The position numbers and the translations under genes are program-made. The notes below the pieces were generated by a model, which was given only the letters and a program-made list of their open reading frames with translations, searched no databases and had not been told where the DNA came from. A stretch of 64,000 bases of DNA. Origin: a virus. Below are positions 37,653-64,000 of this stretch, one piece after another. The stretch covers positions 37,524-101,523 of IMG/VR virus record IMGVR_UViG_3300028610_001072; one strand, given 5' to 3'. The first letter of the stretch is position 1. Each line of letters starts with the position of its first letter.

Positions 37653-39269
37653 CTAGGCAGTACCCTTATCCAGTATCGTTTTCACTGTATCATATTCGCG
37701 TGTGCGATATGCATTCTCCGCTGTTGACATTTCGGAAGTCGTGATCTTCCCCGCCTCATTGGCAGTAGTCAAGCTCTTGGTGAGCTCACCGAAGGTTTTC
37801 GGAATACCTTCAGGACGACCAGTGGATGCGGCATTGCCGTCACCGGCACCCTCTTCGCCTAAGCCGAATTGTGAAAGGTCAACTGGTCCACCGGGACGCG
37901 ATTTCAGGATGACCTGAAAAGCTGTGCCTATCGGGACTTTTTTGTCGCCCTCACCGATATAGAGTGATTTCTCGACTATATCAATTTTGGACGCCAAGGT
38001 TTCACGCATTACTTCTACCTCACCCAGAGCCTTTGCCATAGCCTGATCTCTTTCGTGATCATAGGCAACTTTCTGGGTCAGGAGATTGGCTACATCACCA
38101 ACGCTTTTCTGGATGTCCATCAGCATCGGTCCTGCATCCAAGTATTCTTCACCATCTCCGTCACCGGGGATGGTTACAATTTCGTCTGCTTCTTCAAGGC
38201 CGCCACCGTCACCGGCTGGAACGGACTTGAATATACGTTCCCTGATTTCTGACATATTGGTAACAAGGCTCTTCAGTAATGAAGTGGGGGTCTCCGGGCC
38301 ACCACCACCGCCATCGCCGCCGCCATCGCCGCCGCCATCGCCGCCGCCATCGCCGCCGCCATCGCCGCCGCCATCGCCGCCGCCCTCTTCGGGGAACAGG
38401 GATTTTGCGAGCCTGCCCGCAACTTCTTCGTCATGTCCTTCATCGACAAAATGTTGTTTGGCCTGTTCTTCGGTTTCAAAAGTCTTCATCGGTAAACTCC
38501 CGTTTTCAGATTTTTTGAGTTTGTTTTTCTTCCGTGTTTTATCCTTAGAACCGGCTGCCTTAATCTGCTCAGCGGTCTCTTTGATCTCGTCGTCGATATT
38601 TTCCTTGGTAATGGCATCCACTCCAGTTTTCGATGCAAGATCGGTACTGGTTGGTGTGGCCGTCATTGCCTTTTCGACTTCTTCCTTGTAACCCAAGGAT
38701 TTGGCAAATCGTGCATGGTTCTCCTGAAGTGCATGGAGATATACAGATTTATTCACTGGGCTGGGGGTGATTACTACATTGACCACTTTCGCTTTGCGAT
38801 AGCCGCCTTTTTCGACTTTGCCGTCGGTGTAATTGCCTTCAACAGACCAGCCCAAAGTTTTTTGATTGTTGGGAAATTGGCGATTGTGCGTCTCGATGTT
38901 CTGGATCAACTGCCATACATCGTTTGAATATTTTCCGTCCGCGAACAGTGCCCCTTTGATCAGCGTCCCGCCTTCAGGGGTGGTGGCTCGCTCATGGGGA
39001 CACCCAATAATATGAGCCGGGTCATTCGCAACATGCTCATATTTGATCCAGCCCTGATCATCGAAGTATGAGAAATCGAGCGATTTACTGATCAGCCTCT
39101 CTTTGTCCTCATCCTCATTGGAGTTGGTTATCTCTCCCCAGATCAGTCGCCGGGTGATCAGTTTACCGCTGTCATCCGCCACCTTTTCCTTGGCCGAATC
39201 TACGGACTTTTGGAGATTGATCATCCCGTGTAGTATGAAGTCAGGTTGCTGCTGTTGTTCATTACTCAT
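37653..39269 (-). CDS. Prohead protease fused to scaffold
   Basis: DEDKERLISKSLDFSYF...WIKYEH...IIG.P, LGWSVEG, NVVITPSPVN protease motifs, followed by an acidic tail with many xxKS/KA sites. Confidence 0.85.
   Translation of the reverse strand: MSNEQQQQPDFILHGMINLQKSVDSAKEKVADDSGKLITRRLIWGEITNSNEDEDKERLISKSLDFSYFDDQGWIKYEHVANDPAHIIGCPHERATTPEGGTLIKGALFADGKYSNDVWQLIQNIETHNRQFPNNQKTLGWSVEGNYTDGKVEKGGYRKAKVVNVVITPSPVNKSVYLHALQENHARFAKSLGYKEEVEKAMTATPTSTDLASKTGVDAITKENIDDEIKETAEQIKAAGSKDKTRKKNKLKKSENGSLPMKTFETEEQAKQHFVDEGHDEEVAGRLAKSLFPEEGGGDGGGDGGGDGGGDGGGDGGGDGGGGGPETPTSLLKSLVTNMSEIRERIFKSVPAGDGGGLEEADEIVTIPGDGDGEEYLDAGPMLMDIQKSVGDVANLLTQKVAYDHERDQAMAKALGEVEVMRETLASKIDIVEKSLYIGEGDKKVPIGTAFQVILKSRPGGPVDLSQFGLGEEGAGDGNAASTGRPEGIPKTFGELTKSLTTANEAGKITTSEMSTAENAYRTREYDTVKTILDKGTA
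38308..38379. repeat. Perfect 12-bp tandem repeat x6 (CCGCCATCGCCG) encoding (GGGD)6 in the scaffold
   Basis: Seen directly in sequence. Confidence 0.95.
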
Positions 39270-39366
39270 GGTAAAAAAAATGCCCAATCCCCCTGTGGGA
39301 ACTGGGCCTATGACCTTATTACTATGCTTCGCAAATTGAAGCTGTGATGTCCTTGCCTCGGATGAG

Positions 39367-39957: not shown

Positions 39958-40780
39958 TCCAGCCAATCCTTTCTGACTGCTGCTTGGAGATTTCCATCCA
40001 GCCTTCCGGTATCTCAGTTTCCATGATGTTGTAAGTCAACCGTGGATCGGCTGTCCATTCGATACCGCGCACCTTGCAATCATAGAGCAATATGTCGATC
40101 AGCTCTGTCAGGTCATCGTACAGCATCCCTCGATCTAGGGGATACCTCAACTCCAATGGCTTCCCGTTGGAGCGTTGCACCTGCACCCTGCCTTCCCACT
40201 GATCCCCCCATGCCCATACTTCGAGCAGGGTGGCGCTTTGCTCCAGCGGGTACAGGGTCAATGCTCCGGGACTGTGTATATCCATCCGGGCCAGCATTTC
40301 TTTATCGTAGCTGATGCCGCACTGATCCAATAGCCATGTCATTCCTGTGAAGCCGGTCCCTTGAAATCCAATCCCAAAGCCGGACAGGCTTATGATGCTG
40401 CCATCAGCGCCATGCACTTGGGTTTCGGTTTGCACCATTTCTCCATCCCAACTGATCGTAACCTGCTGGATCGGGTAGACAAGATGCCGGTTCTCCTGAA
40501 ACACCCTCTCGGATTTTCTGGTCTCTCCCGAGCCGTCGTCATCGATGTAGGTTAAGGTTTGCAGGTCCTCTTCCATGCCCGTACATATTGCACATCCCCC
40601 GGCGAGGATCAGGAAGCCGCCGGGTTTGCAGCGTTCCATCCAGCCCCGCAACTCTTCACGCTCAGGGGCGGTTGCCCGCTCCAGCAATGCCTTGATCTCA
40701 TCGCCGGACCATTGCCATTTCTGGGTCATCCCTATGCTGAAGACGAATGCGAAGGTCTTGTGTTGATTCATCTCATTCAT
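39950..40780 (-). CDS. Hypothetical protein
   Basis: 276-aa ORF coupled to its neighbours. Confidence 0.6.
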   Translation of the reverse strand: MNEMNQHKTFAFVFSIGMTQKWQWSGDEIKALLERATAPEREELRGWMERCKPGGFLILAGGCAICTGMEEDLQTLTYIDDDGSGETRKSERVFQENRHLVYPIQQVTISWDGEMVQTETQVHGADGSIISLSGFGIGFQGTGFTGMTWLLDQCGISYDKEMLARMDIHSPGALTLYPLEQSATLLEVWAWGDQWEGRVQVQRSNGKPLELRYPLDRGMLYDDLTELIDILLYDCKVRGIEWTADPRLTYNIMETEIPEGWMEISKQQSERIGWNE

Positions 40781-42230
40781 TCGTCATTTCCTTTATTGAA
40801 AATCCTAAGTGACTGTCGTTATTCTTCATCACTTCGAGCACCAGCAGATTCATTATCTTGCCAGTCACCCGCAGTAATTCTTTTTGCCAGCCCTCGTCGT
40901 GAGCGATCCCTTTTTCGTGAGAGAACTCATGTGCCAGCAGGGACATGAACCAGTAGGGGTCCGCCTCTGCTGCACCGGGCATGAAATGGGCTATGTTGAT
41001 CACCAATGTTTTACTGCCTCGCACATATCCAGCTTGTATTGTTGCTCTACCTTCGCGGATAAAGTCCACCGATAAAGCAGCATCAAATGGGTAGAGGTTT
41101 CTCCAAACGTACCGGGCTGCCCGGTCCATGATGGTCATGTGCTCATCCCATTCATGTCGATCTATTGGATCAACCGCTCTTCCGGCACTATTACCAAACT
41201 GGACACTGGAATGCTCCATACCTACATGCTCGAATCTGGTCCGCTCGCTGGGGGACATGGTTCTGGGGTGGATCACTTCCAGCCCTTTTTCCATTGCCAG
41301 TTGATTGGCTTCCAGATCGGATGACCAGAGTACAGCATTGCCGTAACGTTTTTGCCGGACCTTGCTTATGGTCTCATCAGTTACCATCTCGTCTTCGCTG
41401 GCAATCCGCACCCACTCGTCAGAGATGTCCTCTTCATCCATATCATCAATTGTGACCTCGAGAGCCAGCGCATAGACATCCCTGAGATAGCCACTGGAGA
41501 CGCTTTCGCGGTTAGGTGACAGGGGGATTTTCTGCATCACATTGATATGATGTCGGCTCTCGATAGGTTGGACCGGGATTCCCATTTCATAGAGCCACGG
41601 CTGCACTTGGATCGGGCAGTCATATAGCTCGATGGCGGTCTTCCGCTTGGTTGGCCGGATCGCACCATCGTTAAAAATCACGGTGGGCAGAGTTCCTTCG
41701 GTCTGGTATTCGACTGGCATTCTGTGCAAGGTCTTCCCATTCACCGCGAATGCGATCCCCGCCGGTGGTAAGAATAATCGCAGCATCTTTACCACTTCTT
41801 CAACCTCAGCCTTGGTCCAGTTGATGTGCGCTTGGATGAATGTCCCTTGAGGAGTTTTGAAAGCCTTCCCCTTTTTGACTACGCACTGGCGAGACTTCGT
41901 GAAAAATACCGATCCCTTGGTGGTCCTGATTTCCATATCATTTGCAATCGCAGCCAGCTCTTTTTCACCCAAATTGAACCGACCTCGGACACTAGGATCA
42001 CCCCGCTTGGGTGTGTGACCGAAAAGGGTGTAGGCATCTGCCAGATCGGCAAAGCCGGGACCGTCATCGATGATCCTGATCTCAGCTAATCTATTCCCTT
42101 CCTTTTCCACAGCCACGGAGCAGGTTTCAATATTTTCATCCCAAGCATTTGATACCAACTCCCGGACGAAATTCCATGCAGGTCTACCAGCTTGCAGCTC
42201 GGCAAAGCCTGCGGTATTTATCTTCAGCAT
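40773..42230 (-). CDS. GHKL (Hsp90/MORC-like) ATPase with C-terminal HExxH metallopeptidase-like motif
   Basis: RELVSNAWD, IIDDGPGF, RGRFNLGEK; LLAHEFSHEKGIAHDEGW. Confidence 0.8.
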   Translation of the reverse strand: MLKINTAGFAELQAGRPAWNFVRELVSNAWDENIETCSVAVEKEGNRLAEIRIIDDGPGFADLADAYTLFGHTPKRGDPSVRGRFNLGEKELAAIANDMEIRTTKGSVFFTKSRQCVVKKGKAFKTPQGTFIQAHINWTKAEVEEVVKMLRLFLPPAGIAFAVNGKTLHRMPVEYQTEGTLPTVIFNDGAIRPTKRKTAIELYDCPIQVQPWLYEMGIPVQPIESRHHINVMQKIPLSPNRESVSSGYLRDVYALALEVTIDDMDEEDISDEWVRIASEDEMVTDETISKVRQKRYGNAVLWSSDLEANQLAMEKGLEVIHPRTMSPSERTRFEHVGMEHSSVQFGNSAGRAVDPIDRHEWDEHMTIMDRAARYVWRNLYPFDAALSVDFIREGRATIQAGYVRGSKTLVINIAHFMPGAAEADPYWFMSLLAHEFSHEKGIAHDEGWQKELLRVTGKIMNLLVLEVMKNNDSHLGFSIKEMTNE

Positions 42231-51545: not shown

Positions 51546-51578
51546 AAAAAGCCCCAGAGATGGGAGGCTCTGGGGCTT
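51546..51578 (-). terminator. Intrinsic terminator after the sigma-like gene
   Basis: AAGCCCCAGAG...CTCTGGGGCTT followed by TTTTT on the minus strand. Confidence 0.8.
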
Positions 51579-51622: not shown

Positions 51623-52945
51623 CTACAGGCGGATCGGGATGATCACCCTGATTGACTTCTGCACTAATGCTAGTGCTCGTTTCAAATTTTCTGGCGCACT
51701 GGCATGTTCTAATATCTTTTCGACTCCAGCCTGATAGGTTCGATAGACATCCATCTGGCCGGTGGCTTTTTCCTTGAATGGCGGCGTACCGATGATCCGC
51801 CATTTCTGCCCGCCACGCTCGACAATGAATGACTTCCCTGTCACGTTGACTATTTCAGCACGGATGGGATGCTTATAGCGTTCATTGACATAGGTGGTAT
51901 AGCGTTTCTTTTTAACAGTGCGCCGCCCCCGTTGATCCTTGCCCCGGACAACTCTCGTCACATCCTTGCGAACTTTCTTCATCGGCTTGAACCGGTGGAA
52001 ATCACCTACCGTCTTCCTGACCTTGATTTTTCTAATGCCGCGCTTTTGGTCGAGCAACTTTGCCACAGTCTCGAATGATCGCGGATTCATCCCCCGGCTG
52101 CTTTCCGGCTTATCCACATAGAACCTGAGATACAGGACATCCCGCTCATCCGGGGTCAAGGCTTTCTCTTTTACCAGACTGGTTATTACCCTGTGGGTGG
52201 TCTCCCTGAGTTCCCGCTCCTCAATAGTCCACTTGCTCCAGAAAGCCACATCCTCTTCTTCAATGTGGGGAGTGGTGTCCATGTCATCGGTTAGCTGAGC
52301 GCCTTTGTAACCTTCCAGTGCTTCTATTCGGACAAGTTTTTCTTCCGGGCTTAATTCTACATATTCGCCATCGCGGGTTCGCTTATGCAGGATCACCATG
52401 TCGGCAAGGTCTTCCCGGCTGGGCTTCTCCCCGTTATTGAGCTTCATATATTTTTCAGTGGCACTGGAGATGATTGCCAATTGCCTGATCATATCTCTGG
52501 GGAGCTGGACCCCGCTACCCCGGAGCTTCTTAGCCATGAGCCGCATCCGTTGCTTGGCTCTGGTCTTCATCTGCATAAATTTCAGATCGCCGGTTTTCTT
52601 CGACCTGATTGCTTCCATCCCGCCAATGAGCATTCCCTGCTTGCCCTCAGAGATCAGGTCCGCAACATCTCCCACCGGCTGACCATCGATGAACCTCACA
52701 TCCAGCCCATGCACTCGAGCGATCTCTTTCCCCATGTAAACCAGATAGGCGATATTCTTTTGAATAATCCGCCCCAGTTCCTGCATCTGTGGCATGGTGG
52801 CTTTTAGCCGCATTTTCGGTGTTTTCCGGGCCTGTTTTGGTTTGCCGGTACGAATGTGTGCAGCAACCGGTTTCCCGCTCCTGACGTGCGCCCTGACGTG
52901 CTCAGGCTGGGCTTTTAGGAGTGTGGGGAGTTTAACGCGCTGCAT
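51623..52945 (-). CDS. Sigma-70 family RNA polymerase sigma-factor-like protein with N-terminal basic tag
   Basis: Region 2 DVADLISEGKQGML; VQLPRDM (compare IRIPVHM); region 3 GEKPSREDLADMV; region 4 LTPDERDVLYLRFY...RSFETVAKLL...VYRTYQAGVEKI. Confidence 0.75.
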   Translation of the reverse strand: MQRVKLPTLLKAQPEHVRAHVRSGKPVAAHIRTGKPKQARKTPKMRLKATMPQMQELGRIIQKNIAYLVYMGKEIARVHGLDVRFIDGQPVGDVADLISEGKQGMLIGGMEAIRSKKTGDLKFMQMKTRAKQRMRLMAKKLRGSGVQLPRDMIRQLAIISSATEKYMKLNNGEKPSREDLADMVILHKRTRDGEYVELSPEEKLVRIEALEGYKGAQLTDDMDTTPHIEEEDVAFWSKWTIEERELRETTHRVITSLVKEKALTPDERDVLYLRFYVDKPESSRGMNPRSFETVAKLLDQKRGIRKIKVRKTVGDFHRFKPMKKVRKDVTRVVRGKDQRGRRTVKKKRYTTYVNERYKHPIRAEIVNVTGKSFIVERGGQKWRIIGTPPFKEKATGQMDVYRTYQAGVEKILEHASAPENLKRALALVQKSIRVIIPIRL

Positions 52946-53159
52946 TATTTTTCTTTCTGACCTTCCGTGGCATTTTCACCGCTGGCATTTCCAATTCGGT
53001 CTTGCAATGCGAGCACATGCAAATTACAGCTCCGTTGACCTGATTGATAGTCATCGACTTAACCCGGTAGAACATTCGTTGGGGGTCCTTCGCGTCGGGC
53101 TTGGCAATCTTCAACGTGCAGGTAGGGCATCTACCGTCGGCTGTAAGTTTAACCGCCAT
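52932..53159 (-). CDS. Small zinc-ribbon protein
   Basis: CPTC...CSHC. Confidence 0.6.
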   Translation of the reverse strand: MAVKLTADGRCPTCTLKIAKPDAKDPQRMFYRVKSMTINQVNGAVICMCSHCKTELEMPAVKMPRKVRKKNNAAR

Positions 53160-53451
53160 CCTGCCCTTCATTCTCAATTAATGCAGTATTCAGCTCCGCT
53201 GCATGGTGAAACATCTTCCGCCCACTCACAGCACCGGCGTATTCTTTTTGGAGCTTCTTATTCTCCGGGTTCTTTTCAAGTTGTTTCCCCAGAGTTACCG
53301 CCGCCCGTGCGGTCTGGTCATGTTTGCTGATGGCCTCTCCCCTGAGAGTCTTTAGGTCCTGTATGGCTTCGCTGCGCACTGTATCGCAGGTCTCCATCCG
53401 CTTGAGCAGTTTCGAGGTCATGGTTTTTTGCAGTTTCTCAGGCTTGGACAT
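53149..53451 (-). CDS. Hypothetical helical protein
   Basis: AGGAG RBS; coupled to its neighbours. Confidence 0.55.
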   Translation of the reverse strand: MSKPEKLQKTMTSKLLKRMETCDTVRSEAIQDLKTLRGEAISKHDQTARAAVTLGKQLEKNPENKKLQKEYAGAVSGRKMFHHAAELNTALIENEGQDGG

Positions 53452-56400
53452 GAATTCTCCTATTTATCATAATTCGGGGGGACATCGATTTGGCTACTGG
53501 TTGGGATGCTGCTGCAACTTTCTGCTTCAGGACATTCATATCATCCAACTTCGATCCTTCATGCAGCATATTCATTACCGCTTTCTTTTCGCTTAACCGC
53601 TCCTCGGTAGCCATATCGTGCGGCGTATCGGTTAAGATTATGTGGCCGTGGACATCCTTATTCGCTCCCTTGCGATAGCCGCGACTGAAAAACTGATCCA
53701 TTGTTGACCAGCTGTGAGCACCGGACCCCATCGCTATTGCGGTTGTGGCTCCGTATGGGCGATCCGCTTCCCCAGTGTGCTGGAGATTTAATCCCTCAGT
53801 ACCGGCATCGGTATGGATCGCAAATAATACTTTGGGGTCTTTCAGGTAGGTTTCTTTAGCCTTGGCAATAGCTGCTTGACTTATGGCACGGCCATTCTTA
53901 TCCTGCCCGGCGAATCGCACCATCTTCTTACCCGGGTAGTTCGCCCGGATAAATTTCTCAATCTCATTCACCGTGCTGTAATTTTTCGCATACATCAAGA
54001 CCTTTTCCGTCGCTGCCTTGGTGGCAATATGATCATCGATGATCGATTTCATCTGGGCATATTTAGGATTAGTCTTGTGATCGGAGTCATTCAGAATCCG
54101 GCTGATGTGCTGGTCCCGGCTCATGGGATTGATCCGTCCCTTCAGGTATTTCTTCTGGATTTTCTGATAGTCGGCTTTCTGCTTTGGGGACAGCTCGGCG
54201 GTGTGGGTATTCATATGGAAGTTTGATCCTTCAACCTTTTTCTTTACGGTGAATATCCGGTCATCCAGCTCGGCATTCAGGATGTCTTGTAATTTCTCTT
54301 TCAGACCAGCTCCCTTGTGGAGATTTCGGTACTTCTCCATGAAGGCTTTTTTATTACCATATTTTTCCGGGTCCATGATATTCAGATGGAAATATAGCTC
54401 GCTCAGGTCGTTGGGAGTGGGGGTCCCGGACCCCGTTACATAGTACGGTACTTCCTTGGCGATCTTCGCTAACCCACGGCTCATTTGACTGCCAGTTTCG
54501 GGACCTTTAGTTCCGGCAACATCCCGTTGGGTGATCTTATGCCCCTCATCAGCCACCACCATATCGAAGCCAGCGTCTTTAACCAGATCGTGATCGAAGT
54601 AGAATTTTTCCTTATTCACCAGCACAATATAAGAGGGGTCCGCCTTGTAGGCTTCGGCGCGTTTCGATTTATCGGCGTAATCTACTTGCACCACTTTATA
54701 ATCGGAAAACTTCTCCACTTCCTCAGCGAAATTGGGCATCAACTTTTTAGGCATGGCAATAACTGTTTTCACCGGTTTACCGGTGGTCTCTTCAAGGTGT
54801 GCTTTCTGAAGGAGATACGCCAGCGATTTCCCGGTTCCCGCCTCGAAATTCAAATAGACCTTTTTCTGGAGTCCGATAAATCGGGCGGCGGCCTGTTGCT
54901 CGGGTGTCGGTATGATCTTGGTCATGGTGCCATCGGCATTTTCGATATAGGGCTTGATGCCGGTGGGTAGCCAGTCCTGCTCATTTTCACGGAGACTCTT
55001 AATGCTCTGGGGACTCGGCTCCCTTCCTAGTTCCTTGAATTGAGCCACGACTTTTTCATTGATTAGTTTTTCGTATGCCTTCGCTTTGATGATCATCGTA
55101 TAATCGCCGTGGCCGTGGCGCTCGATGTTGACATCACCCTTATTTAATCCCAGTTTATCGATCTTGGCATTTAATGCCTGTCGATTCGAGCTCTTGATTG
55201 TCAGGTCCTTTTTGTGGCTCTGAAATTGGTACAGGAGCTCGGCGGCCATGTGCAGACCACCTTCGGCTTGACCATACGCGAGGTATGCCCGATTTACATA
55301 AGCCAGCTTGGCGGCTGATCCCTGCTGACGGGTAGCGAATAGCATATCCTTGCCCTTGGCAAATTTCGTGACGTGCTGCGCTCGCTCGAGATACTTATCA
55401 CCTTTATTGACGGCATCGAGGGCAATCTCATTACCCTTGTCCTCAATGTATTTCTGATAGCGGCCAACCGATCCGGCGTAATCCTCTTCCCCTAGAGTAT
55501 TCCGTAGATAGTAGTCTGCCAGTATGGCGGCGTTAGCTGCGCCAAGTTCATTCATAAAGTCTTCATTGATGATACTGGTGCCAGCCATTTCGCCGGTGAT
55601 GCCGTTGATGGCTTCGATTGATCCCTGAGCGATCATCTTATCCATATCCTTCCGCTCAGCACCTTTGCTCTCAATTTCCTTACCATTCTGATCGATCCCG
55701 CCACGGGTGTTGACAATCAGGGTATAGTGAGCGGCAATCTCATCCCGCAATGCTTTCTCATCCTCGACCATCCGCATTAGGTCCGCACTGGTAATATCAG
55801 AGACTCCTACAATGTCTGAGCCAGCGTGTGTTACCATGCCGGTACGGAGCTGCTTATTAATGACCTTCAACTCCCGCTCATGCCCCTTGATGGCATAATG
55901 GGCTTTCAGGAATTCTTCTGCATTCTCCCGGATCACCTGAGCAATACGTTTCTTCTCGGCATCGTGCTGGTCATCGATACCAACCTCATCCCCCAACATG
56001 ACCTTTTTGGCATCCTCGATGATGCTATTCAATGCCCGGCGGCGTTCATTGGCAATCTTGTTGATTTCCTTCAGTCGCTCCCCCCGCTGCTCGGGCTTGG
56101 ACATCTTCTCAATTCTTTTCTCGATGGCCGCCCGTTCCTTGGCAGTGACTTCAGTTTCGACGCCAGCTTTTTCCCGAACCATTTCATGTAGTTTCCCCTT
56201 GGCCTCAGTGCGCTTCGCACCTACCTCTTCCTTGCGAGTTGCGAGTTTTTCAACATCTTCTTCGGCCATCTCTTCCCGGCGTTTCGCACGGGCGTCTTCC
56301 TTCGCCTGTTTGGATTTTTCCCGTGCCAGCTTGGCCTCTTCGGTGTCAGCCTCTTTTTTCTTCGGCTGTAGGATTTTGTGGGTGAGACCTGATTGCTCTG

Positions 56401-57145
56401 GTGCCCAGACTATTGAGGCGGTCCCGTTGGCATGAGGCATTATCAGGATATGGCGGCCATGTAGAGGACTGCTGGCATCCGTGATCGTAACCCAGCGAGC
56501 ACCGGGATGCTGGCGCATGATATTTGCACTCCAGCTCTTTTCCATCTCCTGCGGATTTCCGTGCCGCCCAGCTTTTACCCTGTATTTCTTTTTCGATTTG
56601 GGATGCGTGAGATAGAACTCACCCCCCTTACAAGTATGATCCTTGTGCATCGAATAGTAGCAGCCCTTCCGCATAATCGATGATCCCCGAGCCACCAATA
56701 GAGGGCCGACTTTATTGAGATTGAGGTTTGCTGTTCTGCCCTTTTGTAGATCGGGGACCATTGAGATCGACTTCCCAAAATTCTTTAGTTTCTCCTGATA
56801 GATACCGGCGGCTTTCTTCCAGAATGCCTTATACTCATCCTTGGCCCATTTCGGAGCCATGGCACTGTCATATACTGACCACTGCTGCATCGACTGTTCG
56901 CTACCGTTCATGTGTGGCTTCAGCCAGATAAACGATGATCCCACCATCTTGGCGCTCTGCTGGGCCAGTGCCAATTTCTTCTGCAACTCCTGCTTGGTTT
57001 CACAGGCATTCGCCCATTTGCGGTGAGCACTGATACCGGTATTCATGGCCGCCTGTCGGACCTGTTGCGCTGCCCGGTTATAGGATGATACCCGGATCAT
57101 CAATCCTGATCTCAGCTTACGTGCATGTCCTTTGACTTGACTCAT
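53438..57145 (-). CDS. Large protein with C-terminal SNF2/SWI2-like helicase
   Basis: FEAGTGKS, VADEGHKI, GSGTPTPNDLSELY, DAGTEGLNLQ, DQFFSRGYRKG. Confidence 0.85.
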   Translation of the reverse strand: MSQVKGHARKLRSGLMIRVSSYNRAAQQVRQAAMNTGISAHRKWANACETKQELQKKLALAQQSAKMVGSSFIWLKPHMNGSEQSMQQWSVYDSAMAPKWAKDEYKAFWKKAAGIYQEKLKNFGKSISMVPDLQKGRTANLNLNKVGPLLVARGSSIMRKGCYYSMHKDHTCKGGEFYLTHPKSKKKYRVKAGRHGNPQEMEKSWSANIMRQHPGARWVTITDASSPLHGRHILIMPHANGTASIVWAPEQSGLTHKILQPKKKEADTEEAKLAREKSKQAKEDARAKRREEMAEEDVEKLATRKEEVGAKRTEAKGKLHEMVREKAGVETEVTAKERAAIEKRIEKMSKPEQRGERLKEINKIANERRRALNSIIEDAKKVMLGDEVGIDDQHDAEKKRIAQVIRENAEEFLKAHYAIKGHERELKVINKQLRTGMVTHAGSDIVGVSDITSADLMRMVEDEKALRDEIAAHYTLIVNTRGGIDQNGKEIESKGAERKDMDKMIAQGSIEAINGITGEMAGTSIINEDFMNELGAANAAILADYYLRNTLGEEDYAGSVGRYQKYIEDKGNEIALDAVNKGDKYLERAQHVTKFAKGKDMLFATRQQGSAAKLAYVNRAYLAYGQAEGGLHMAAELLYQFQSHKKDLTIKSSNRQALNAKIDKLGLNKGDVNIERHGHGDYTMIIKAKAYEKLINEKVVAQFKELGREPSPQSIKSLRENEQDWLPTGIKPYIENADGTMTKIIPTPEQQAAARFIGLQKKVYLNFEAGTGKSLAYLLQKAHLEETTGKPVKTVIAMPKKLMPNFAEEVEKFSDYKVVQVDYADKSKRAEAYKADPSYIVLVNKEKFYFDHDLVKDAGFDMVVADEGHKITQRDVAGTKGPETGSQMSRGLAKIAKEVPYYVTGSGTPTPNDLSELYFHLNIMDPEKYGNKKAFMEKYRNLHKGAGLKEKLQDILNAELDDRIFTVKKKVEGSNFHMNTHTAELSPKQKADYQKIQKKYLKGRINPMSRDQHISRILNDSDHKTNPKYAQMKSIIDDHIATKAATEKVLMYAKNYSTVNEIEKFIRANYPGKKMVRFAGQDKNGRAISQAAIAKAKETYLKDPKVLFAIHTDAGTEGLNLQHTGEADRPYGATTAIAMGSGAHSWSTMDQFFSRGYRKGANKDVHGHIILTDTPHDMATEERLSEKKAVMNMLHEGSKLDDMNVLKQKVAAASQPVAKSMSPRIMINRRIHVQA

Positions 57146-58305
57146 GCTGCGGCTCCAACTTTAATTATGGTCTCCAATGATTTGCGAGCTTTCCGGCGGC
57201 GGCGTTTCCCCTTAATCCCCTTGGCATTCAGGTAGCCGTCAATGGTGCCGCCACTCTCGAAAAACTTCTGAGCGAATTGCATTTCCCGGTCCAGTTTCTT
57301 CATCTCTTCATTGATGAGAGCCACCTTGCGGGCAGTGACGGCCAGCTTGCCTTTTTCCTTCGCTAGTGCAGGAATGATCTTCGCGCCGTTCTTTTCGCTT
57401 ACTCGATCCATTAGGCTTCCGAAGTCATCCAGTAATTTCCCAAGGTCGCGCTCCAGTGAATTCCTGCGCTGCTTTGTGATCCGCTGGCCGATGGTGTTAC
57501 CCTCGATGCTAAATAGCCCGGTCTGGGTCTGTGAACTTTGATAGCGGCCAACCATCCCCCGTAACGCTTCAGTGGAGATTTTTCCCATATTCAGCCGCTT
57601 GATAATATTCTGCTGGTAAGCTGGTTTAAGGTTTGCGGTGGATATGATTTCCGCCCGGCGTACTGTCATTGAGCCATGCCTCACCATCTCCTGCAACTGG
57701 GGGATCAGGCTCAGGAATGATATGCGCCGCTCAACCGTCACTTTGGATGTGCCAACCGCCTCAGCTATATCGTCCGCCGTTGCGCCGGTGTCAACCAACT
57801 TTTGATAGGCTGTGGCCTCTTCCATCGGATTCATTTCCTCACGGCCAACATTCTCCGCCACCTGAATCTCAGCAATTTCTTTCTCGTCGGTAATGTGATA
57901 AACCTTCGCATTGGCGATTTCAACCCCTGCGATCTGCATGGCTCTCCAGCGCCGCTCCCCTGCGATCAGCATGTAGTCGCCTTTAAGGTCCGGGTGTGGC
58001 CGGATTACAATATCCTGTAGTAGTCCTATTTTTTTAATACTGGCGGCCAGCTCCTTCAATTTGCCTTCATCGAAGTGCTCCCGTGGCTGGGTAGGATCGC
58101 GGTGGATCGCGCCAACCGGCACCTGAGCCTTACTGGTTTTCGCCTCGACCTTGACAAGCTGCTTCCCGCCGAAAAGGTCCTCTGGATATTCGTACTGGTA
58201 ATGGCCGGGCGCACCGATTCGCTTGGTGTATTTATGACCGGGCTTCATTGTGCCGGTAGCACTCTTCCTGAGTCTCGACTTGATTAAGATTTGAACGCCT
58301 TCCAT
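57142..58305 (-). CDS. ParB/Spo0J-like protein with N-terminal extension
   Basis: QPREHFDEGKLKELAASIKKIGLLQDIVIR...LIAGERRWRA...ENVGREEMNPMEEA followed by an HTH. Confidence 0.9.
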   Translation of the reverse strand: MEGVQILIKSRLRKSATGTMKPGHKYTKRIGAPGHYQYEYPEDLFGGKQLVKVEAKTSKAQVPVGAIHRDPTQPREHFDEGKLKELAASIKKIGLLQDIVIRPHPDLKGDYMLIAGERRWRAMQIAGVEIANAKVYHITDEKEIAEIQVAENVGREEMNPMEEATAYQKLVDTGATADDIAEAVGTSKVTVERRISFLSLIPQLQEMVRHGSMTVRRAEIISTANLKPAYQQNIIKRLNMGKISTEALRGMVGRYQSSQTQTGLFSIEGNTIGQRITKQRRNSLERDLGKLLDDFGSLMDRVSEKNGAKIIPALAKEKGKLAVTARKVALINEEMKKLDREMQFAQKFFESGGTIDGYLNAKGIKGKRRRRKARKSLETIIKVGAAA

Positions 58306-58571
58306 AATTCCTTCAGTATATATCCCAGTCCTGTTAATGCCAGCAGCGCAGTGCCGCTATCTTTTGCCATATTCGTAACTACTTGCGTAACCGTCTTGAC
58401 TTCATCGGCGGCCACATGAATTGCATCCGGCATAAATACTCTGACCGTGATAATCGCGCCTGCCAACATAACCCCAACGGTTATATGTTGCCGGTGTTTC
58501 TTGATAGCAGCCAGCTTTGCAGCCTCTCGTTTTTTAGCCCGCTCACGCTTGGCTTTGGTTGACAATTTCAT
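58284..58571 (-). CDS. Hypothetical membrane protein
   Basis: Basic N-terminus and two hydrophobic segments. Confidence 0.55.
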   Translation of the reverse strand: MKLSTKAKRERAKKREAAKLAAIKKHRQHITVGVMLAGAIITVRVFMPDAIHVAADEVKTVTQVVTNMAKDSGTALLALTGLGYILKELWKAFKS

Positions 58572-60274
58572 CGTGCGCCTGCTTTGGTCCTGCCCATAAT
58601 TATTATGGATTTCTGGACTCCGGTATAGGTCATACCCCGAGCACTGTAATAGCCCTGCCCTGTCTCGAATACTGCATCGAGTAACTGGTATCCTGATGGT
58701 TTGAAATATTTCTCAGCCGTTTCTCGATAGGCGTGTGCATCTCGGGCGCTGGGATGTGATCCCACCGTGATGCAATTCACGGACCCTGTATCGAGCATGT
58801 GCTTCATTAGGGCCTTGCTGTACTTCGTCTGGGTGGCACTGAGATTCAGGTGATTATCTCCCAGTAGAAAAAATCCCGTGACATTATTCTGCCCGTTTAG
58901 GGTGATCCCCCAGACCCCCTTCCCATGCTCGGCTTGTATCCATTTCCCTAACCGAGCAGCGTCTTGGGCTGAAGTGACCGCCATATCTGGCATACCTGAA
59001 GGAGCTGATTCTCGGCTTGTCACCTTGATTTCGGAAATGGGATGCTCAACCCAGCTACGTTTTTGCGTTGGGACGTAATCGTCTTTAGCCCTGTCAATGT
59101 ATGGCTCAAATGTGGTGAAGGTTAGCTTGCCACCATGAATGATAACATCGCCCTGATGTTCAATCCCGAATTTCTTGGCGAAGGCTTTTATCCTGTCAGT
59201 GATGGCATAGTCGTCCCGTGAGGGATTAGGGCTGCCTGATGGGTGATTGTGAATTCCCCAATACTTCTTTGCCTTATTGGCTCTCAATACGCTGAGGATC
59301 ACCCGTGGATCAACTGTTGAATCGGTTATGCCGCCCATGCTATGCAGTTCGACTGATATGAGTTTATCATCCTTATCCGTGCCAACTACCCAGTATTTTT
59401 CCCGTGCGTCATCCCGCATACTTTTAAATATCGCGGCTATATCTCCAGCCTTCGTGATCTTGGTTCCCGGTACTTTAATTGACCCGGTTGGCATGGCTCC
59501 GACTTTTACGAAGGACATTCCCTTGATTTTACGGGACTTACCTTTTTTGGTCCGGCTGTCCTGATGCTCACGGACAGTTGTAATCTTACCAGATTTCGTG
59601 TGCCGGAGATGGGTTTTAATCTTGGCCTTGATCATCTGGGGCTTATTCGCCGTCGCCAGTACCTTCGGCTTGAACTTATCGAAGGTCATGGTGGTGCAGC
59701 TCATAAACATATCGCGGCGGTCATAATTCTTTAGATAATCCTCAATGGCCTGCTCTCTCGATCTCCAGCCCAACATGCACTTGTCTTCATCATACTTGCC
59801 GGTTTTCACATTCCTTTGATGGATCACGTACACCTTTGGAGCATTCGGCTCGGGACCCATAAAGCAGTCTACATGATCTTTATCAACTCCAGTAGTCCCC
59901 CGGATGTAGCCATAATCGAAATGGAGCAGGCTTCGCCATTCGTTCCCGTCGGGGTCTTTCCCAGTTCGATAGGTCCCGGCGGGATTCTCTATGGAAATTT
60001 TCAGACCCCTGAAAGTCAGACGTTTGCGGATAGGATGCCCGCTCCATGTTTTCGACTTCAGTAAAATTTGGGGGATAGGCGGAATACGGTTATCACCCCG
60101 CACCCCGTCCCTATCCCCTCCGCCCTTGGAAGCACTCACACTCAAAGCTTTTTCCAGTTGTCCAGATATAATCAGATCATGGACATCCGGCACTCCAGCT
60201 AAGGGGACGCCTAAATAGACATCCCCCTCTGCACTCAGGCAGAACCGGTCGCCGTTTGGGGTAGAATTATTCAC
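58568..60274 (-). CDS. Polyvalent protein: inorganic-pyrophosphatase-like domain plus RadC-like JAB domain(s)
   Basis: ISIENPAGTYRTG...DYGYIRGTTGVDKDHVDCFMGP...YDEDKCMLG; REKYWVV...HNHPSGSPNPSRDD; second degenerate JAB (GSHPS). Confidence 0.85.
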   Translation of the reverse strand: MNNSTPNGDRFCLSAEGDVYLGVPLAGVPDVHDLIISGQLEKALSVSASKGGGDRDGVRGDNRIPPIPQILLKSKTWSGHPIRKRLTFRGLKISIENPAGTYRTGKDPDGNEWRSLLHFDYGYIRGTTGVDKDHVDCFMGPEPNAPKVYVIHQRNVKTGKYDEDKCMLGWRSREQAIEDYLKNYDRRDMFMSCTTMTFDKFKPKVLATANKPQMIKAKIKTHLRHTKSGKITTVREHQDSRTKKGKSRKIKGMSFVKVGAMPTGSIKVPGTKITKAGDIAAIFKSMRDDAREKYWVVGTDKDDKLISVELHSMGGITDSTVDPRVILSVLRANKAKKYWGIHNHPSGSPNPSRDDYAITDRIKAFAKKFGIEHQGDVIIHGGKLTFTTFEPYIDRAKDDYVPTQKRSWVEHPISEIKVTSRESAPSGMPDMAVTSAQDAARLGKWIQAEHGKGVWGITLNGQNNVTGFFLLGDNHLNLSATQTKYSKALMKHMLDTGSVNCITVGSHPSARDAHAYRETAEKYFKPSGYQLLDAVFETGQGYYSARGMTYTGVQKSIIIMGRTKAGAR

Positions 60275-62964
60275 TACAGCCCGTACTCATGGAGATCATA
60301 CTCCGACAGTTTGTACTTCTTTTTCGGGTCCAGATTCCGGGCGATCCTATCCAGCTTCTCGATCCTCTGGCGTAGGTTGCGAAGCCTGTACGGCTCTACG
60401 GGTGGCTTCGCGTCTGTCTCCACAGATGCCGCCATGTCGGGTGCCATTTCATTATTATCGGTTGGCGTCGGCTTTAGCCCGGCCCGCCATTCAGCTAACC
60501 CTCGCAGGAGATCGCCCTGACATTCACCAATTTTGCAGCGTGTGGCAAATATAATATCCTTCCCGCTCTTCGTGAATTCGAGAGACTTGGAAAGCTTGCC
60601 AACCTCGACCGCTTTTTGAAGGACTGGATATTGATTCATGTCGATGGATTTCTTTGCGGGCTGTTTCCGAGCGGCTTCAATCATAGCTGCTTCTTTGGCG
60701 GCAGCCCTTTCAGGATTCTTTTTTCGATCTGCCTTGGTCGGGAGACCTGCATCGGCCCTATGCCCCTCCCATTTGCTTTCATGGTGAGCCGACCTTTCAT
60801 AGTGATGTTCATATTTGGATGAACCTTTTTTATGCCTTTTTAGCCGCTCGTCGTGATGCTCCATTCTGGCTTTATGGTGCTCAGCCATCTCTACAAAATG
60901 ATGTGTCCCCCCGTATTGATGGGCTGACACGAATCCACGCTGACCCGGTTTCCGAGTCTTTTGATGTTCCCGGACGGTTGTAATCGTTCCTGATTTGGTC
61001 CGGCGCTGATGTTGCTTGACTGTCCCGACTGCTTTTTGCAGTAGGGGGTATTTATCGAGATCATTCATTGTTCCGCTCTCCATTGATTTCTTAGCTGATG
61101 TGTATGCCGCTCTGAATTCCTTGAGTCCAAGATAGCCCTCTGTTTGTGCTGGAGTTAAGCCAAATTCTTCCCCCTTCTTATGGAGATTGGTGAGCGTATC
61201 CGCAGCACCTTTTTTGTTACCAGCCTTGAATTGCTGGATGTACTCATTGGCCCATTTTCGCATTCCTACCCTATCCTCGAGGGGGATTTTATTTTCCTGT
61301 CCTCGGTGCTGGGTTTGATGTTCCCGGACGGTTGTGATCTTCCCTGATTTGGTCCGGCGTTGATGCTGCTTGACCGTGCCGACTGCCTTTGCCAGCAGGG
61401 GGTAATTTTCGAGGCCATTCATATCTGACTCCATTGACTTCGTGAATCGGGGTGTGCCATGCTTCTTTTTTAGCAGCTCGAATGCCAGATCGGATACCTT
61501 ATAGATATTGAATCCATCGCCGGTTGTATCGGTTTTTTTAATACCCCGGCCTTTCAATTCGATATTGGTCGTGAGATAAATCGATCCATAATGACCGTAT
61601 TCATAGTCCCATACTCCGGGACGATCACCGGTGTACTTTTTCTTGTATTCGGATTCCATGTTATCAATTCTGGTCTGGAGTAGTTTTCTCTTCCCAGATT
61701 CTTTATCACCGATCCGGTTCCGTTTTTCCTTCAGGCTATTGATAGCCTTTCTGGCTGTGAGCTGCTGGGCAGCTTTTTGGGATTCAGCGTGACCAATATC
61801 CGCTTTTTCTCGGGCTGTTATTAGCGCCTTATCTTTGCGCCGTTGCTCGTCATGGGTTAAGGATTCTCCCGTATTATTATACTGAAATTCCCCGTGCTGC
61901 TGCTGTATCTTTTTAAGTGCTGCCTCGGTGACACTATAGGTTTTCAGCCCGAGCCGGTGATCACTGCCATCCCCTGACTGTCTGATTCCCCGCCCTTTAA
62001 GGTCCAAGTGTGTTGTGACGTAGTAGTCTCCCCCGTGGGATACTTTATATTCCCGGACCTGTGCCGGTTTCCCTGTGAATGGCTTCAAGTCGGATTCCTT
62101 GGGCAGTGCTTCTCTCAGAAAGTGGCTCCGTTGATTAACATAGTGCTTCGCCTCAGCGTTGGTCATCTTGCCGGTGTATTTGAAATGATCTATTATTTCG
62201 GCGTCTGATGAGCTCTCGTCATTGGATAGGACGGACGCAATCCATTGACGTTTCAGGCCATCTTTTTGCTTCTTAGTCCGGCTATCGGTGTGCTCCCGGA
62301 CAGTGCCAGTTTTACCGCTTTTGTAATGACGGATGTGCGCTACAACCTTGCCCTTCCGCAATAACATCATTGCTTTGCCCATAGTCCCCAGACTGGTAGC
62401 CATTCCGGTGTGCATCTCAATGACATCCGTGAGCATATCGTTATAGATACCCTTGGCGTCAGTGACCTTTTTGTACGTTGGTCCTTTGGTGATCCGTCCA
62501 AATTCCACATCGTAGGTATCCACCGCATTTAGGGTGATCCTGATCATGTGGATGCTGCTGGAGTTCCGGCCAATCCTGAATTGGAGATAGGCATCGCCGT
62601 TCTCATGGGTCCCGGCTCCGTAGCCTTTGGCACCGATCATGTACAGGGCTTGCCTACCAATTTGCTTCTGGATAGTGTGAGCCACAGCCAGCGCATATTT
62701 ATTATCGGCGGCTCGCCTCTTCTGGCGGCTGTCTTCATGCTCCCTGACATTGACCACCTTACCCGCTTGGCGGCGCTGGTGAGCCTTAACATGAGCTTTG
62801 AGTAATATGGGTTGCATGGCTTTCTTCCCCTTCATCTGTTGGTAGATGCCCATCGTGTAAGCATAGAATTCGTCGGAGCCTTCGGATTTCGTTTTCCGGG
62901 CAATTCCCTTCGCCTTATTCCACAGGTGCTCATCACGTTCGTTTTTGACGACGTTGGTTGGCAT
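60274..62964 (-). CDS. Modular polyprotein, probable internal head protein
   Basis: Four copies of the V..H.R...GK...VREH tag, each preceded by LxK[A/G], separating unrelated small domains. Confidence 0.75.
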   Translation of the reverse strand: MPTNVVKNERDEHLWNKAKGIARKTKSEGSDEFYAYTMGIYQQMKGKKAMQPILLKAHVKAHQRRQAGKVVNVREHEDSRQKRRAADNKYALAVAHTIQKQIGRQALYMIGAKGYGAGTHENGDAYLQFRIGRNSSSIHMIRITLNAVDTYDVEFGRITKGPTYKKVTDAKGIYNDMLTDVIEMHTGMATSLGTMGKAMMLLRKGKVVAHIRHYKSGKTGTVREHTDSRTKKQKDGLKRQWIASVLSNDESSSDAEIIDHFKYTGKMTNAEAKHYVNQRSHFLREALPKESDLKPFTGKPAQVREYKVSHGGDYYVTTHLDLKGRGIRQSGDGSDHRLGLKTYSVTEAALKKIQQQHGEFQYNNTGESLTHDEQRRKDKALITAREKADIGHAESQKAAQQLTARKAINSLKEKRNRIGDKESGKRKLLQTRIDNMESEYKKKYTGDRPGVWDYEYGHYGSIYLTTNIELKGRGIKKTDTTGDGFNIYKVSDLAFELLKKKHGTPRFTKSMESDMNGLENYPLLAKAVGTVKQHQRRTKSGKITTVREHQTQHRGQENKIPLEDRVGMRKWANEYIQQFKAGNKKGAADTLTNLHKKGEEFGLTPAQTEGYLGLKEFRAAYTSAKKSMESGTMNDLDKYPLLQKAVGTVKQHQRRTKSGTITTVREHQKTRKPGQRGFVSAHQYGGTHHFVEMAEHHKARMEHHDERLKRHKKGSSKYEHHYERSAHHESKWEGHRADAGLPTKADRKKNPERAAAKEAAMIEAARKQPAKKSIDMNQYPVLQKAVEVGKLSKSLEFTKSGKDIIFATRCKIGECQGDLLRGLAEWRAGLKPTPTDNNEMAPDMAASVETDAKPPVEPYRLRNLRQRIEKLDRIARNLDPKKKYKLSEYDLHEYGL
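60960..61404. repeat. ~90-bp imperfect direct repeat (60960-61050 and 61314-61404) encoding YPLL.KAVGTVKQHQRRTKSG.ITTVREHQ
   Basis: Seen at DNA and protein level; the differences are mostly synonymous. Confidence 0.9.
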
Positions 62965-63507: not shown

Positions 63508-63878
63508 TATTCAGCCTCTCCCTTCCGCACCATTTTCTTGAACTGTTTTTCGCGCTTCCCAGTGAGTGTAGCGCGATCTTTTTCAGCGGCCTTGGTTTTA
63601 ATCTGCTCCTCTACCTCACGGAGAGCTCGCTCCTGCTGCCGCATTTCAATATTGCGGAGTTCGGCTTCGAGATCATTGATCTTAACCTTTTCGGCCTCGA
63701 TCTTCCATTGGGCGAACCAGCGGGTGAGAATCCAACTACCGTTGATAATATTCTCATAGGCCCGGATTGTTAGGATGTGAGAGGATGTAGCTGATGTTAG
63801 GGTATTGACCGCCTGAGTGAGCTTATCACATCGCAGGTGCAATTCCTTGAATTCTAATATCTGCTGTGCATCATTCAT
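63507..63878 (-). CDS. Hypothetical coiled-coil protein
   Basis: Coupled ORF. Confidence 0.55.
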   Translation of the reverse strand: MNDAQQILEFKELHLRCDKLTQAVNTLTSATSSHILTIRAYENIINGSWILTRWFAQWKIEAEKVKINDLEAELRNIEMRQQERALREVEEQIKTKAAEKDRATLTGKREKQFKKMVRKGEAE

Positions 63879-64000
63879 GCTGGGACCTCAAACTTTTCCA
63901 GTAATGTATTGATGGTGTCGCGCAGTCGGGTAAGTTCCTCACGATCTTGGATTGCCGATACATCAGCACCTTTCCCAAGGAATAGGGCCGGGAAAATAAT

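Follow-up and report, generated by a model that had tools for sequence, protein, structure and literature searches.

To our knowledge, there are only a few phages, namely T4, P1 and those of the phiKZ type, for which it is understood how enzymes are loaded for delivery with the DNA and how they are released. In T4, internal proteins carry a capsid-targeting sequence (CTS) that is cut by gp21 at L/I-x-E, and the basic products are injected with the DNA (PMC12373910). In giant phages of the phiKZ/SPN3US type, the prohead protease removes propeptides from many proteins of the head interior, ejection proteins among them; it does so at a single short motif, which is used on scaffold-like proteins as well (PMC5694885, PMC10052503). 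Delivery with the DNA has been predicted for the phage-type polyvalent proteins of Iyer, Burroughs, Anand, de Souza and Aravind (2017) (PMC5512222). The Thermus phage Lalka27a encodes a 1715-aa SF2 helicase (Lvh) among its structural genes, and this protein was found in virions. Here, we describe a gene cluster (51623-62964) of an uncultured phage from a metagenome. The analyzed stretch, referred to as the window, consists of the last 64 kb of the 101,523-bp IMG/VR virus record IMGVR_UViG_3300028610_001072. Features are given in window coordinates, and the genes and gene parts of this phage located below, as well as its terminator-like hairpin, are on the minus strand. Proteins of this cluster share a short basic element (the tag), a predicted hairpin that typically follows the step phi-x-K-[S/A] (phi being a hydrophobic residue). 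The computational results show that this module, which lacks annotation, is widespread and portable, and that it is associated with polyvalent-protein domains and head-gene neighborhoods. The combination of a putative cleavage site with a hairpin suggests modular loading and trimming of proteins that are delivered with the DNA.

The initial annotation had reported four copies of the motif in the open reading frame (ORF) 60274-62964 and one in the middle of a pyrophosphatase-JAB protein, and all five were recovered. Four strong copies are found in the 896-aa product of the first ORF (aa 51-84, 199-233, 523-556 and 641-675). The corresponding units of step plus hairpin are located at 62710-62814 (tag 1, PILLK|A), 62266-62370 (tag 2, LLRK|G), 61294-61398 (tag 3, YPLLAK|AVG) and 60940-61044 (tag 4, YPLLQK|AVG), with the vertical bar marking the proposed cut. 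The fifth strong copy (aa 211-245 of the 568-aa ORF 58568-60274) lies between an InPase and a RadC/JAB domain, with MIK|A as its step (59540-59644). Each of the five scores 60-70 bits against a profile built from the others, and this profile has no other match among the 146 ORFs of the genome. Chance or low complexity as the origin of the motif is ruled out by these scores, together with composition-preserving shuffles. Degenerate copies had also been noticed at the start of the SNF2 protein (57074-57142) and of a sigma-like protein (52841-52924, a short variant following TLLK|A). They are not significant with the narrow profile. With a broad profile, built from 249 database copies, they rank third and fourth among the 146 proteins (E 3e-5 and 6e-3), and both are conserved in orthologs on other contigs (L012 for SNF2 and L008 for the sigma-like protein; L-numbers denote the loci compared, and G-numbers, used below, the phage genomes).

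At the DNA level, the tag copies are 62-72% identical, with many synonymous differences, and therefore it is the peptide that selection keeps. The units of tags 3 and 4 share 86% DNA identity, so that they stem from a more recent duplication. One might consider the tag to be mainly a DNA-level recombination linker that serves cassette exchange between genes and phages. In tag-containing homologs of the 896-aa protein, cassettes are indeed shuffled or deleted and their order varies, with tags at the junctions. Close homologs also swap the domain after the tag; one database protein (P0154) retains InPase and tag but has a different downstream domain. The low DNA identity and the synonymous changes, in a peptide that is conserved over very distant sequences, render this explanation extremely improbable. 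Because selection acts on the protein, recombination at tags would be a by-product.

The tag is by no means restricted to this phage. A seven-sequence profile was searched against 1.84 billion cluster representatives (50% identity clusters), which resulted in 345 protein clusters with E<=1e-3, of which 66 reached E<=1e-10. The tag proteins have 50-3447 aa and carry one to five copies, often at the extreme N-terminus. The consensus and the site statistics were derived from 269 copies in the best 150 of the 345 proteins. The consensus is phi-x-K-[S/A]-H-V-K-x-[H/Y]-x-R-[R/K]-T-K-S-G-K-V-x-x-V-[K/R]-E-[H/Y]-x-D-[S/K]-R-x-K-K, the hairpin being basic and about 30 residues long. The step ahead of the hairpin is the most conserved part. 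It is present in 257 of the 269 copies and absent from 12. For the copies in this phage, the earlier statement that a hydrophobic residue and K-[A/G] precede nearly all of them was confirmed. Among these 257 copies, P1 is always K (100%), P1' is A (50%), S (47%) or G (3%), and P3 is L, M, I or F in 97%.

No Pfam model matches the tag, even at E<=10, and no match was found to PDB chains or in the Atlas. The basic hairpin is also not among the domains described in the reference paper on polyvalent proteins (PMC5512222). Database matches that have a name are all called "hypothetical protein"; one of them belongs to Oryzomonas rubra, a bacterium. A tblastn search of cultured phages with the 35-aa tag had no match, and two degenerate DNA patterns of the tag did not find a copy in 185,579 prokaryote genomes. 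Given the copy from Oryzomonas rubra, which was detected by protein search, the tag is rare in prokaryote genomes rather than absent. Pfam analysis of 55 tag proteins confirmed that unrelated enzymes share this portable element. The domains identified are InPase (14), ART-PolyVal (5), SAM lyase (5), SNF2 (4), LPD1 (4) and RadC/JAB (4), with ddrB-ParB, Topo-IB, ParB, Zeta toxin and GNAT as further domains.

According to AlphaFold2, the sites are predicted to reside in flexible linkers and the tag is predicted to be a beta-hairpin. In the model of the InPase-tag-JAB protein, InPase has a predicted local distance difference test score (pLDDT) of about 90. It is followed by an irregular linker that contains MIK|A and by a two-stranded hairpin (E222-225/E231-234) with T-K-S-G-K at the turn and a pLDDT of about 70. 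The JAB half of this model is of low confidence, the alignment being shallow. In the model of aa 1-260 of the 896-aa protein, tag 1 (E59-66/E69-76) and tag 2 (E207-213/E219-225) are both modeled as hairpins between confidently folded cassettes, and both sites are placed in linkers with pLDDT<50 (residues 48-57 and 193-204). When this model was used for a Foldseek search, the best E-value was 0.015 and the template modeling score (TM) was <0.25, so that none of the matches was meaningful.

The step resembles sites in the head-maturation proteins of this phage. We counted it in a loose form ([LIVMF]-x-K-[SAG]) and in a stricter form, with expectations obtained from composition-preserving shuffles. 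The prohead protease, which is fused to an acidic scaffold-like C-terminal half (37653-39287; phrog_1028, 2e-20), contains 17 loose sites (2.7 expected) and 12 strict sites (0.4 expected; p<0.001), and those in the scaffold have the sharp consensus phi-x-K|S-phi. The capsid leader (37493-37597) contains LNK|SL and LEK|AF and has equivalents in G001, G002, G006, G007, G008 and the cultured phage PHB04. The leader sites and a figure of about 15 sites in the protease/scaffold had already been given in the initial annotation. Its suggestion to compare site counts with those of tail and early genes, with a lack of enrichment as a reason to reject the proposal, yielded no such reason. In the cargo cluster, 34 sites contrast with 20.4 expected (p 0.001; strict, 17 vs 4.3), and portal plus MuF have 13 vs 5.1. 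Counts are at expectation in the tail genes (28 vs 32.3), in the terminase (2 vs 3.6) and in all other genes (54 vs 46).

The enrichment is found in every tag-bearing genome for which a protease was found, namely in G001 (7 vs 1.0), G002 (scaffold, 6 vs 1.3), G006 (19 vs 2.7), G007 (7 vs 1.3 and 7 vs 1.1) and G008 (8 vs 1.5 and 11 vs 1.3). The capsid leaders of these genomes all end in the site, directly before the conserved mature N-terminus. Two cultured phages devoid of the tag show the same enrichment: the protease of the Twortvirinae phage PMS2 has 7 sites (1.0 expected), and PHB04 has 6 vs 1.2 and 8 vs 1.4, with ELQK|AL in its capsid leader. Over this phage, the five other tag-bearing phages and these two relatives, the enrichment in the protease/scaffold is put at 6- to 30-fold. 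These statistics point to a K|S/A preference that belongs to the whole protease lineage and is not limited to phages with the tag. The phage encodes a member of the phrog_1028 (Herelleviridae/PHB04-type) protease family, and its cargo bears the motif of scaffold and leader, as would be the case for substrates of this protease. A search of IMG/VR by peptide patterns did not find close relatives of the protease/scaffold. The cleavage of A511/K-type capsids at a Lys-Ser bond, which the initial annotation took as established, was not confirmed in the literature consulted. Felix O1 was ruled out as a model for this lineage, having an S49-type protease and a capsid that is seemingly uncleaved.

The site also occurs close to the C-terminus of cargo proteins. 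A strict site is found within the last 20 residues in 5 of 6 contiguous genes of the cluster, compared to 5 of 140 other ORFs (Fisher p 3e-6). Among the database tag proteins, 39 of 150 have a site within the last 25 residues, compared to 14.7+-3.2 in internal control windows. Four proteins of the cluster had been reported to end in KS plus a short hydrophobic tail, and their endings are as quoted. These are the InPase-RadC/JAB protein (SIIIMGRTKAGAR after VQK|S, 58571-58609, from the site scan), ParB (a tail after ARK|S), the SNF2 protein (after VAK|S, 53441-53488; a comparable tail, SPKRILIPGRIL, is found in L008) and the sigma-like protein (SIRVIIPIRL after VQK|S, 51626-51655; conserved in L008). 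The tails share a common hydrophobic-basic pattern, which in this clade takes the form phi-phi-I-P-x-R.

Sequence comparison indicates that site and hairpin are separable. In G002, N-terminal tags begin at Met without leader or site, and in G009, between 0 and 12 residues separate the site from the hairpin. Besides the basic tag itself, there appear to be at least three other hairpin-type modules that are located after phi-x-K-[S/A] and may take its place. The first alternative (RGG-x-YW-x-D-x-x-G-x-x-x-YG) replaces the basic tag on the G006 ortholog of the sigma-like protein, where it follows MIIIK|A. The second (GHKYxxRxGxPGxYxYxY) is found on ParB in this phage (58216-58305) and in L012; in ParB it follows an N-terminal LIK|S leader, and leader and motif are both conserved in L012. 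The third (ARW[IV]T...HILI) is located inside the SNF2 protein after MEK|SWS (aa 201-227, ARWVT, 56465-56545). It is found together with the site in five orthologs, and also at the N-terminus of the PHB04 helicase. These three motifs, which are unannotated like the tag, recur at N-termini or module starts, and the loci at which they were noticed also include L035:13880-14833, L004:4466-5128 and L004:7179-9575.

These data bear on the possibility that the proteins are packaged, but that phi-x-K-[S/A] is an uncleaved structural strand or cap, its likeness to the scaffold sites being coincidental. It would be consistent with an uncleaved step that none of the 257 copies, from any phage, deviates from K, that some leaders have just 3-5 residues, and that the combination of InPase with a tag behind it is found repeatedly. 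On the other hand, hairpins without the step occur in G002 and G004, where they start at Met, and in the 12 database copies mentioned; the spacing is variable in G009; the step precedes three unrelated hairpin motifs; and it is placed in low-confidence linkers, outside the predicted hairpin. We consider an uncleaved structural step quite improbable.

The gene neighborhood was compared among relatives. Tag genes follow portal and MuF in the same synteny in the IMG/VR contigs L004, L007/L011, L010, L012 and L027. In G002 and G006, cargo genes abut the protease-scaffold-capsid genes. In the cultured phage PHB04 (L038, MF663786.1 17423-32555), the two genes directly upstream of protease-scaffold-capsid encode an N6-methylase (2097 aa) and an SF2 helicase (1518 aa), the latter with a MKPILFLK|A leader and the ARW[IV]T module at its N-terminus. 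PHB04 is a tractable model for the proposed cleavage grammar. The situation is different in G004 (L020:13712-15355), which has a phrog_1357 capsid and a phrog_64 portal and does not have a phrog_1028 match. Two N-terminal tags start at Met without a K-[S/A] leader and are encoded upstream of TerL. The occurrence of the hairpin thus extends beyond a single capsid lineage.

The copies upstream of TerL in a different head module could also be taken to indicate that these enzymes are not packaged and have ordinary functions inside the cell (replication, transcription, anti-defense). The tag would then be a hairpin for nucleic-acid binding or localization, and L-x-K-S/A would be part of its fold or a linker. 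SNF2, ParB and sigma-like functions are common as non-virion functions of phages, and the hairpin of the tag is strongly basic and displays conserved His/Tyr and Arg residues. This explanation has to be set against the position between portal/MuF and protease/major capsid protein (MCP), which is conserved in many genomes, and against a domain repertoire that is that of packaged polyvalent proteins. It also has to account for a site enrichment that is common to scaffold, portal and MuF and absent from tail and early genes, and for the cleavable-looking C-terminal tails. On balance, we regard a purely intracellular role as unlikely.

With moderate confidence, we propose instead that the cluster encodes a split polyvalent arsenal for packaging into the prohead, where the protease would cleave the proteins at phi-x-K|S/A and leave the hairpin in place as a handle at the N-terminus. 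The arsenal (cassette polyprotein, InPase-RadC/JAB, ParB, SNF2 ATPase and sigma-like protein) would be transcribed together with the portal and MuF genes of this myovirus-type phage. The cargo proteins would enter the prohead, where the phrog_1028-family protease would cut them at the same site as its own scaffold half and the capsid leader. These cuts would part the modules from each other and would remove short hydrophobic N-terminal leaders (e.g., M..YPLLxK|) and the C-terminal hydrophobic-basic tails. The removed leaders and tails are better candidates for head targeting than the hairpin. Since the proposed cut precedes the hairpin, the latter would be retained, unlike a removable targeting signal of the T4 type, and would provide every mature fragment with a handle at its N-terminus. 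This handle would most likely bind nucleic acid or the inside of the head, so that the fragments would travel with the DNA. The initial annotation had proposed a portable loading and trimming grammar. The portable tag and its site, shared with scaffold and capsid leader, withstood the analysis. The single tag unit envisaged there has to be revised, as the hairpin lies after the proposed cut, is separable from the site and is one of at least four modules.

Several points weigh against this proposal. For this uncultured phage, it is an inference from the sequence that the proteins would be packaged and cleaved and that the hairpin would serve as a handle. ParB (2 sites vs 2.3 expected) and the sigma-like protein (2 vs 2.1) are not enriched overall, and these two as well as the SNF2 protein could equally act intracellularly after ordinary expression. 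In 37 copies, the K of the step is within the first 10 residues, and leaders can be as short as M-I-K, which is too short for a plausible targeting propeptide, so that the step could be structural. Because K is found in every copy, there is no co-variation with another protease specificity that might prove the link to the protease. In this genome, the protease is set apart from the cluster by about 25 small, early-looking genes. The L008 ortholog of the sigma-like protein keeps its tail (KRIRIVIPRRL), yet K-S is changed to K-R.

It is tempting to speculate that phi-x-K|S/A, a hairpin (basic or one of the three alternatives) and cleavable tails constitute a general, portable loading-and-release code of phages with a phrog_1028 protease. 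We consider such a generalization doubtful. If true, arbitrary enzymes could be placed in a capsid, cut into units and ejected with each unit attached to DNA. This would represent MPTase-independent polyvalent delivery, transplantable onto foreign cargo. For the more limited proposal, the tag marks candidate delivered proteins in metagenomic phages (at least 345 clusters, all of them unannotated). It predicts exact cleavage points and ties them to a protease lineage that has cultured phages (Herelleviridae, PHB04-type). If correct, this would help to annotate anti-defense arsenals in uncultured phages and would explain the processing of polyvalent proteins that lack an MPTase domain. Should the hairpin be merely a DNA-binding handle on enzymes that are not packaged, it would still represent a new small domain family.

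The individual genes of the cluster were analyzed as follows. The 896-aa cassette polyprotein with its four tag units (60274-62964; tag profile, folded cassettes in AlphaFold2) has a single library match, to phrog_9437, which covers aa 94-192. Its aa 771-896 (60277-60654) constitute a C-terminal module of about 125 residues that ends in ...KLSEYDLxEYGL. Many tag proteins that differ in all other respects also end in this module (139 aa in L004, 1358 aa in L008, 607 aa in L012, 270 aa in L027 and several database proteins), which may be a constant, anchoring part of the polyprotein family. A histidine-rich helical cassette with HH..H..HH runs is located at aa ~680-760 (~60655-61000), and a comparable His-rich region is found behind the tag of P0159 from Oryzomonas rubra. 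The adjacent InPase-tag-RadC/JAB protein (568 aa, 58568-60274) was assigned by Pfam (InPase 6e-42, RadC 7e-25), and a JAMM motif is visible (HNHPS..S..D). It is followed by a 95-aa membrane-type protein (58284-58571), which is conserved in L012. The 387-aa ParB protein (57142-58305) consists of an N-terminal domain (Pfam ParB_N 4e-22) and a helix-turn-helix. The SNF2-family ATPase (1235 aa, 53438-57145; Pfam SNF2-rel_dom 6e-13, phrog_62 3e-40) has a long N-terminal extension. The presence of polyvalent-type domains in the head module, as initially annotated, is thus supported by Pfam for InPase, RadC/JAB, ParB and SNF2. The last gene of the cluster codes for the sigma-like protein (440 aa, 51623-52945), which has orthologs in L008 and G006. 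It had been annotated as a sigma factor. A Sigma70_r4 match was indeed found, but its E-value (0.007) is below the Pfam threshold and a PDB sequence search gave no match, so that sigma identity is only weakly indicated. The cluster is closed by a terminator-like hairpin (51549-51578; 11-bp stem with 7 GC pairs).

All long ORFs of the record are on the minus strand. On the circular map, their order is TerS, a 736-aa probable TerL, the portal protein (696 aa) and a MuF-like minor head protein (422 aa), followed by three small ORFs, the 896-aa protein, InPase-RadC/JAB, the 95-aa protein, ParB, the SNF2 ATPase, two small ORFs and the sigma-like gene. Beyond the strong terminator, there are the ~25 small genes, then the protease/scaffold, the MCP (36005-37597; phrog_752, 3e-49) and the tail genes. 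The capsid protein has 25-29% identity to those of PHB04-like Bordetella phages, Thermus Lalka phages and Herelleviridae. The record has an exact direct terminal repeat of 144 bp (63857-64000, identical to record positions 1-144). Because it is so short and exact, it most likely reflects a circular assembly overlap and not physical terminal redundancy. One sequencing run was found to contain the record, a DNA run from a subsurface metagenome that is probably its source, and no RNA run is listed. A 485-aa protein encoded two genes upstream of the protease (40773-42230) has a weak match to GHKL-type ATPases (HATPase_c_3, E 4e-5). The portal is encoded by two ORFs in L004:2-1458, L012:11702-13659 and L013:8118-9979, in contrast to the single ORF in this genome; the split could be due to an assembly error, a frameshift or an insertion.

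Among the systems described at the outset, the polyvalent proteins are similar in their domains (InPase, RadC/JAB, ParB, SNF2, ART, SAM lyase, LPD1) and in having genes beside portal, terminase or MuF. Polyvalent proteins combine two to fifteen unrelated domains in one chain. In the cluster, several domains on one polypeptide are found for InPase plus JAB and for the 896-aa protein; ParB, the SNF2 ATPase and the sigma-like protein are encoded by separate genes. The arsenal analyzed here differs in being split over several genes, in modules that are bounded by K|S/A sites and in a separate MuF gene (record positions 435-1703), to which no effector is fused. The proposed processing peptidase, MPTase, is frequent though not universal in the polyvalent family, and a peptidase domain was not detected in the five cluster proteins (Pfam E<=0.01). 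The Lalka27a Lvh protein and a DarB homolog resemble the present case in that a large helicase of SF2/SNF2 type is encoded among structural genes, along with a related capsid. For Lvh, no tag is reported, and full-length homology to the SNF2 protein of this phage is not detectable. Homology of the latter to Lvh or to the PHB04 helicase was considered and dismissed, the similarity being restricted to helicase motifs.

The T4 system is similar in that unrelated proteins have only a short terminal element in common, which is beside a prohead-protease site with a hydrophobic P3. There is, however, no sequence similarity. The N-terminal CTS of T4 has about 10 residues and ends in L/I-x-E, in contrast to leaders that end in phi-x-K in this phage, so that P1 is Lys and not Glu, and the protease belongs to phrog_1028 and is not gp21-like. 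Furthermore, the conserved element of this phage is located after the cut, may also be internal and repeated, and is accompanied by C-terminal tails that are predicted to be cleavable. Phages of the phiKZ/SPN3US type have a protease of another lineage with the motif A/S/G-x-E, and a portable hairpin module is not described there. Short C-terminal peptides are known to dock cargo inside an HK97-fold shell, as exemplified by the capsid-targeting tail of the HK97-type protease and by the cargo-loading peptides of encapsulins. By analogy, tails of the type K|S-phi-x-phi-I-P-x-R would fit a docking role, after which they would be cut off. Thus, polyvalent domains were already known, as was the principle of a short shared element with a prohead-protease site on injected proteins (T4, giant phages). 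What appears to be new is the unannotated element family, its placement after the putative cut, its interchange with other hairpins and the candidate cleavable C-terminal tails. Also new would be the processing of polyvalent effectors that these features imply, by the prohead protease instead of MPTase.

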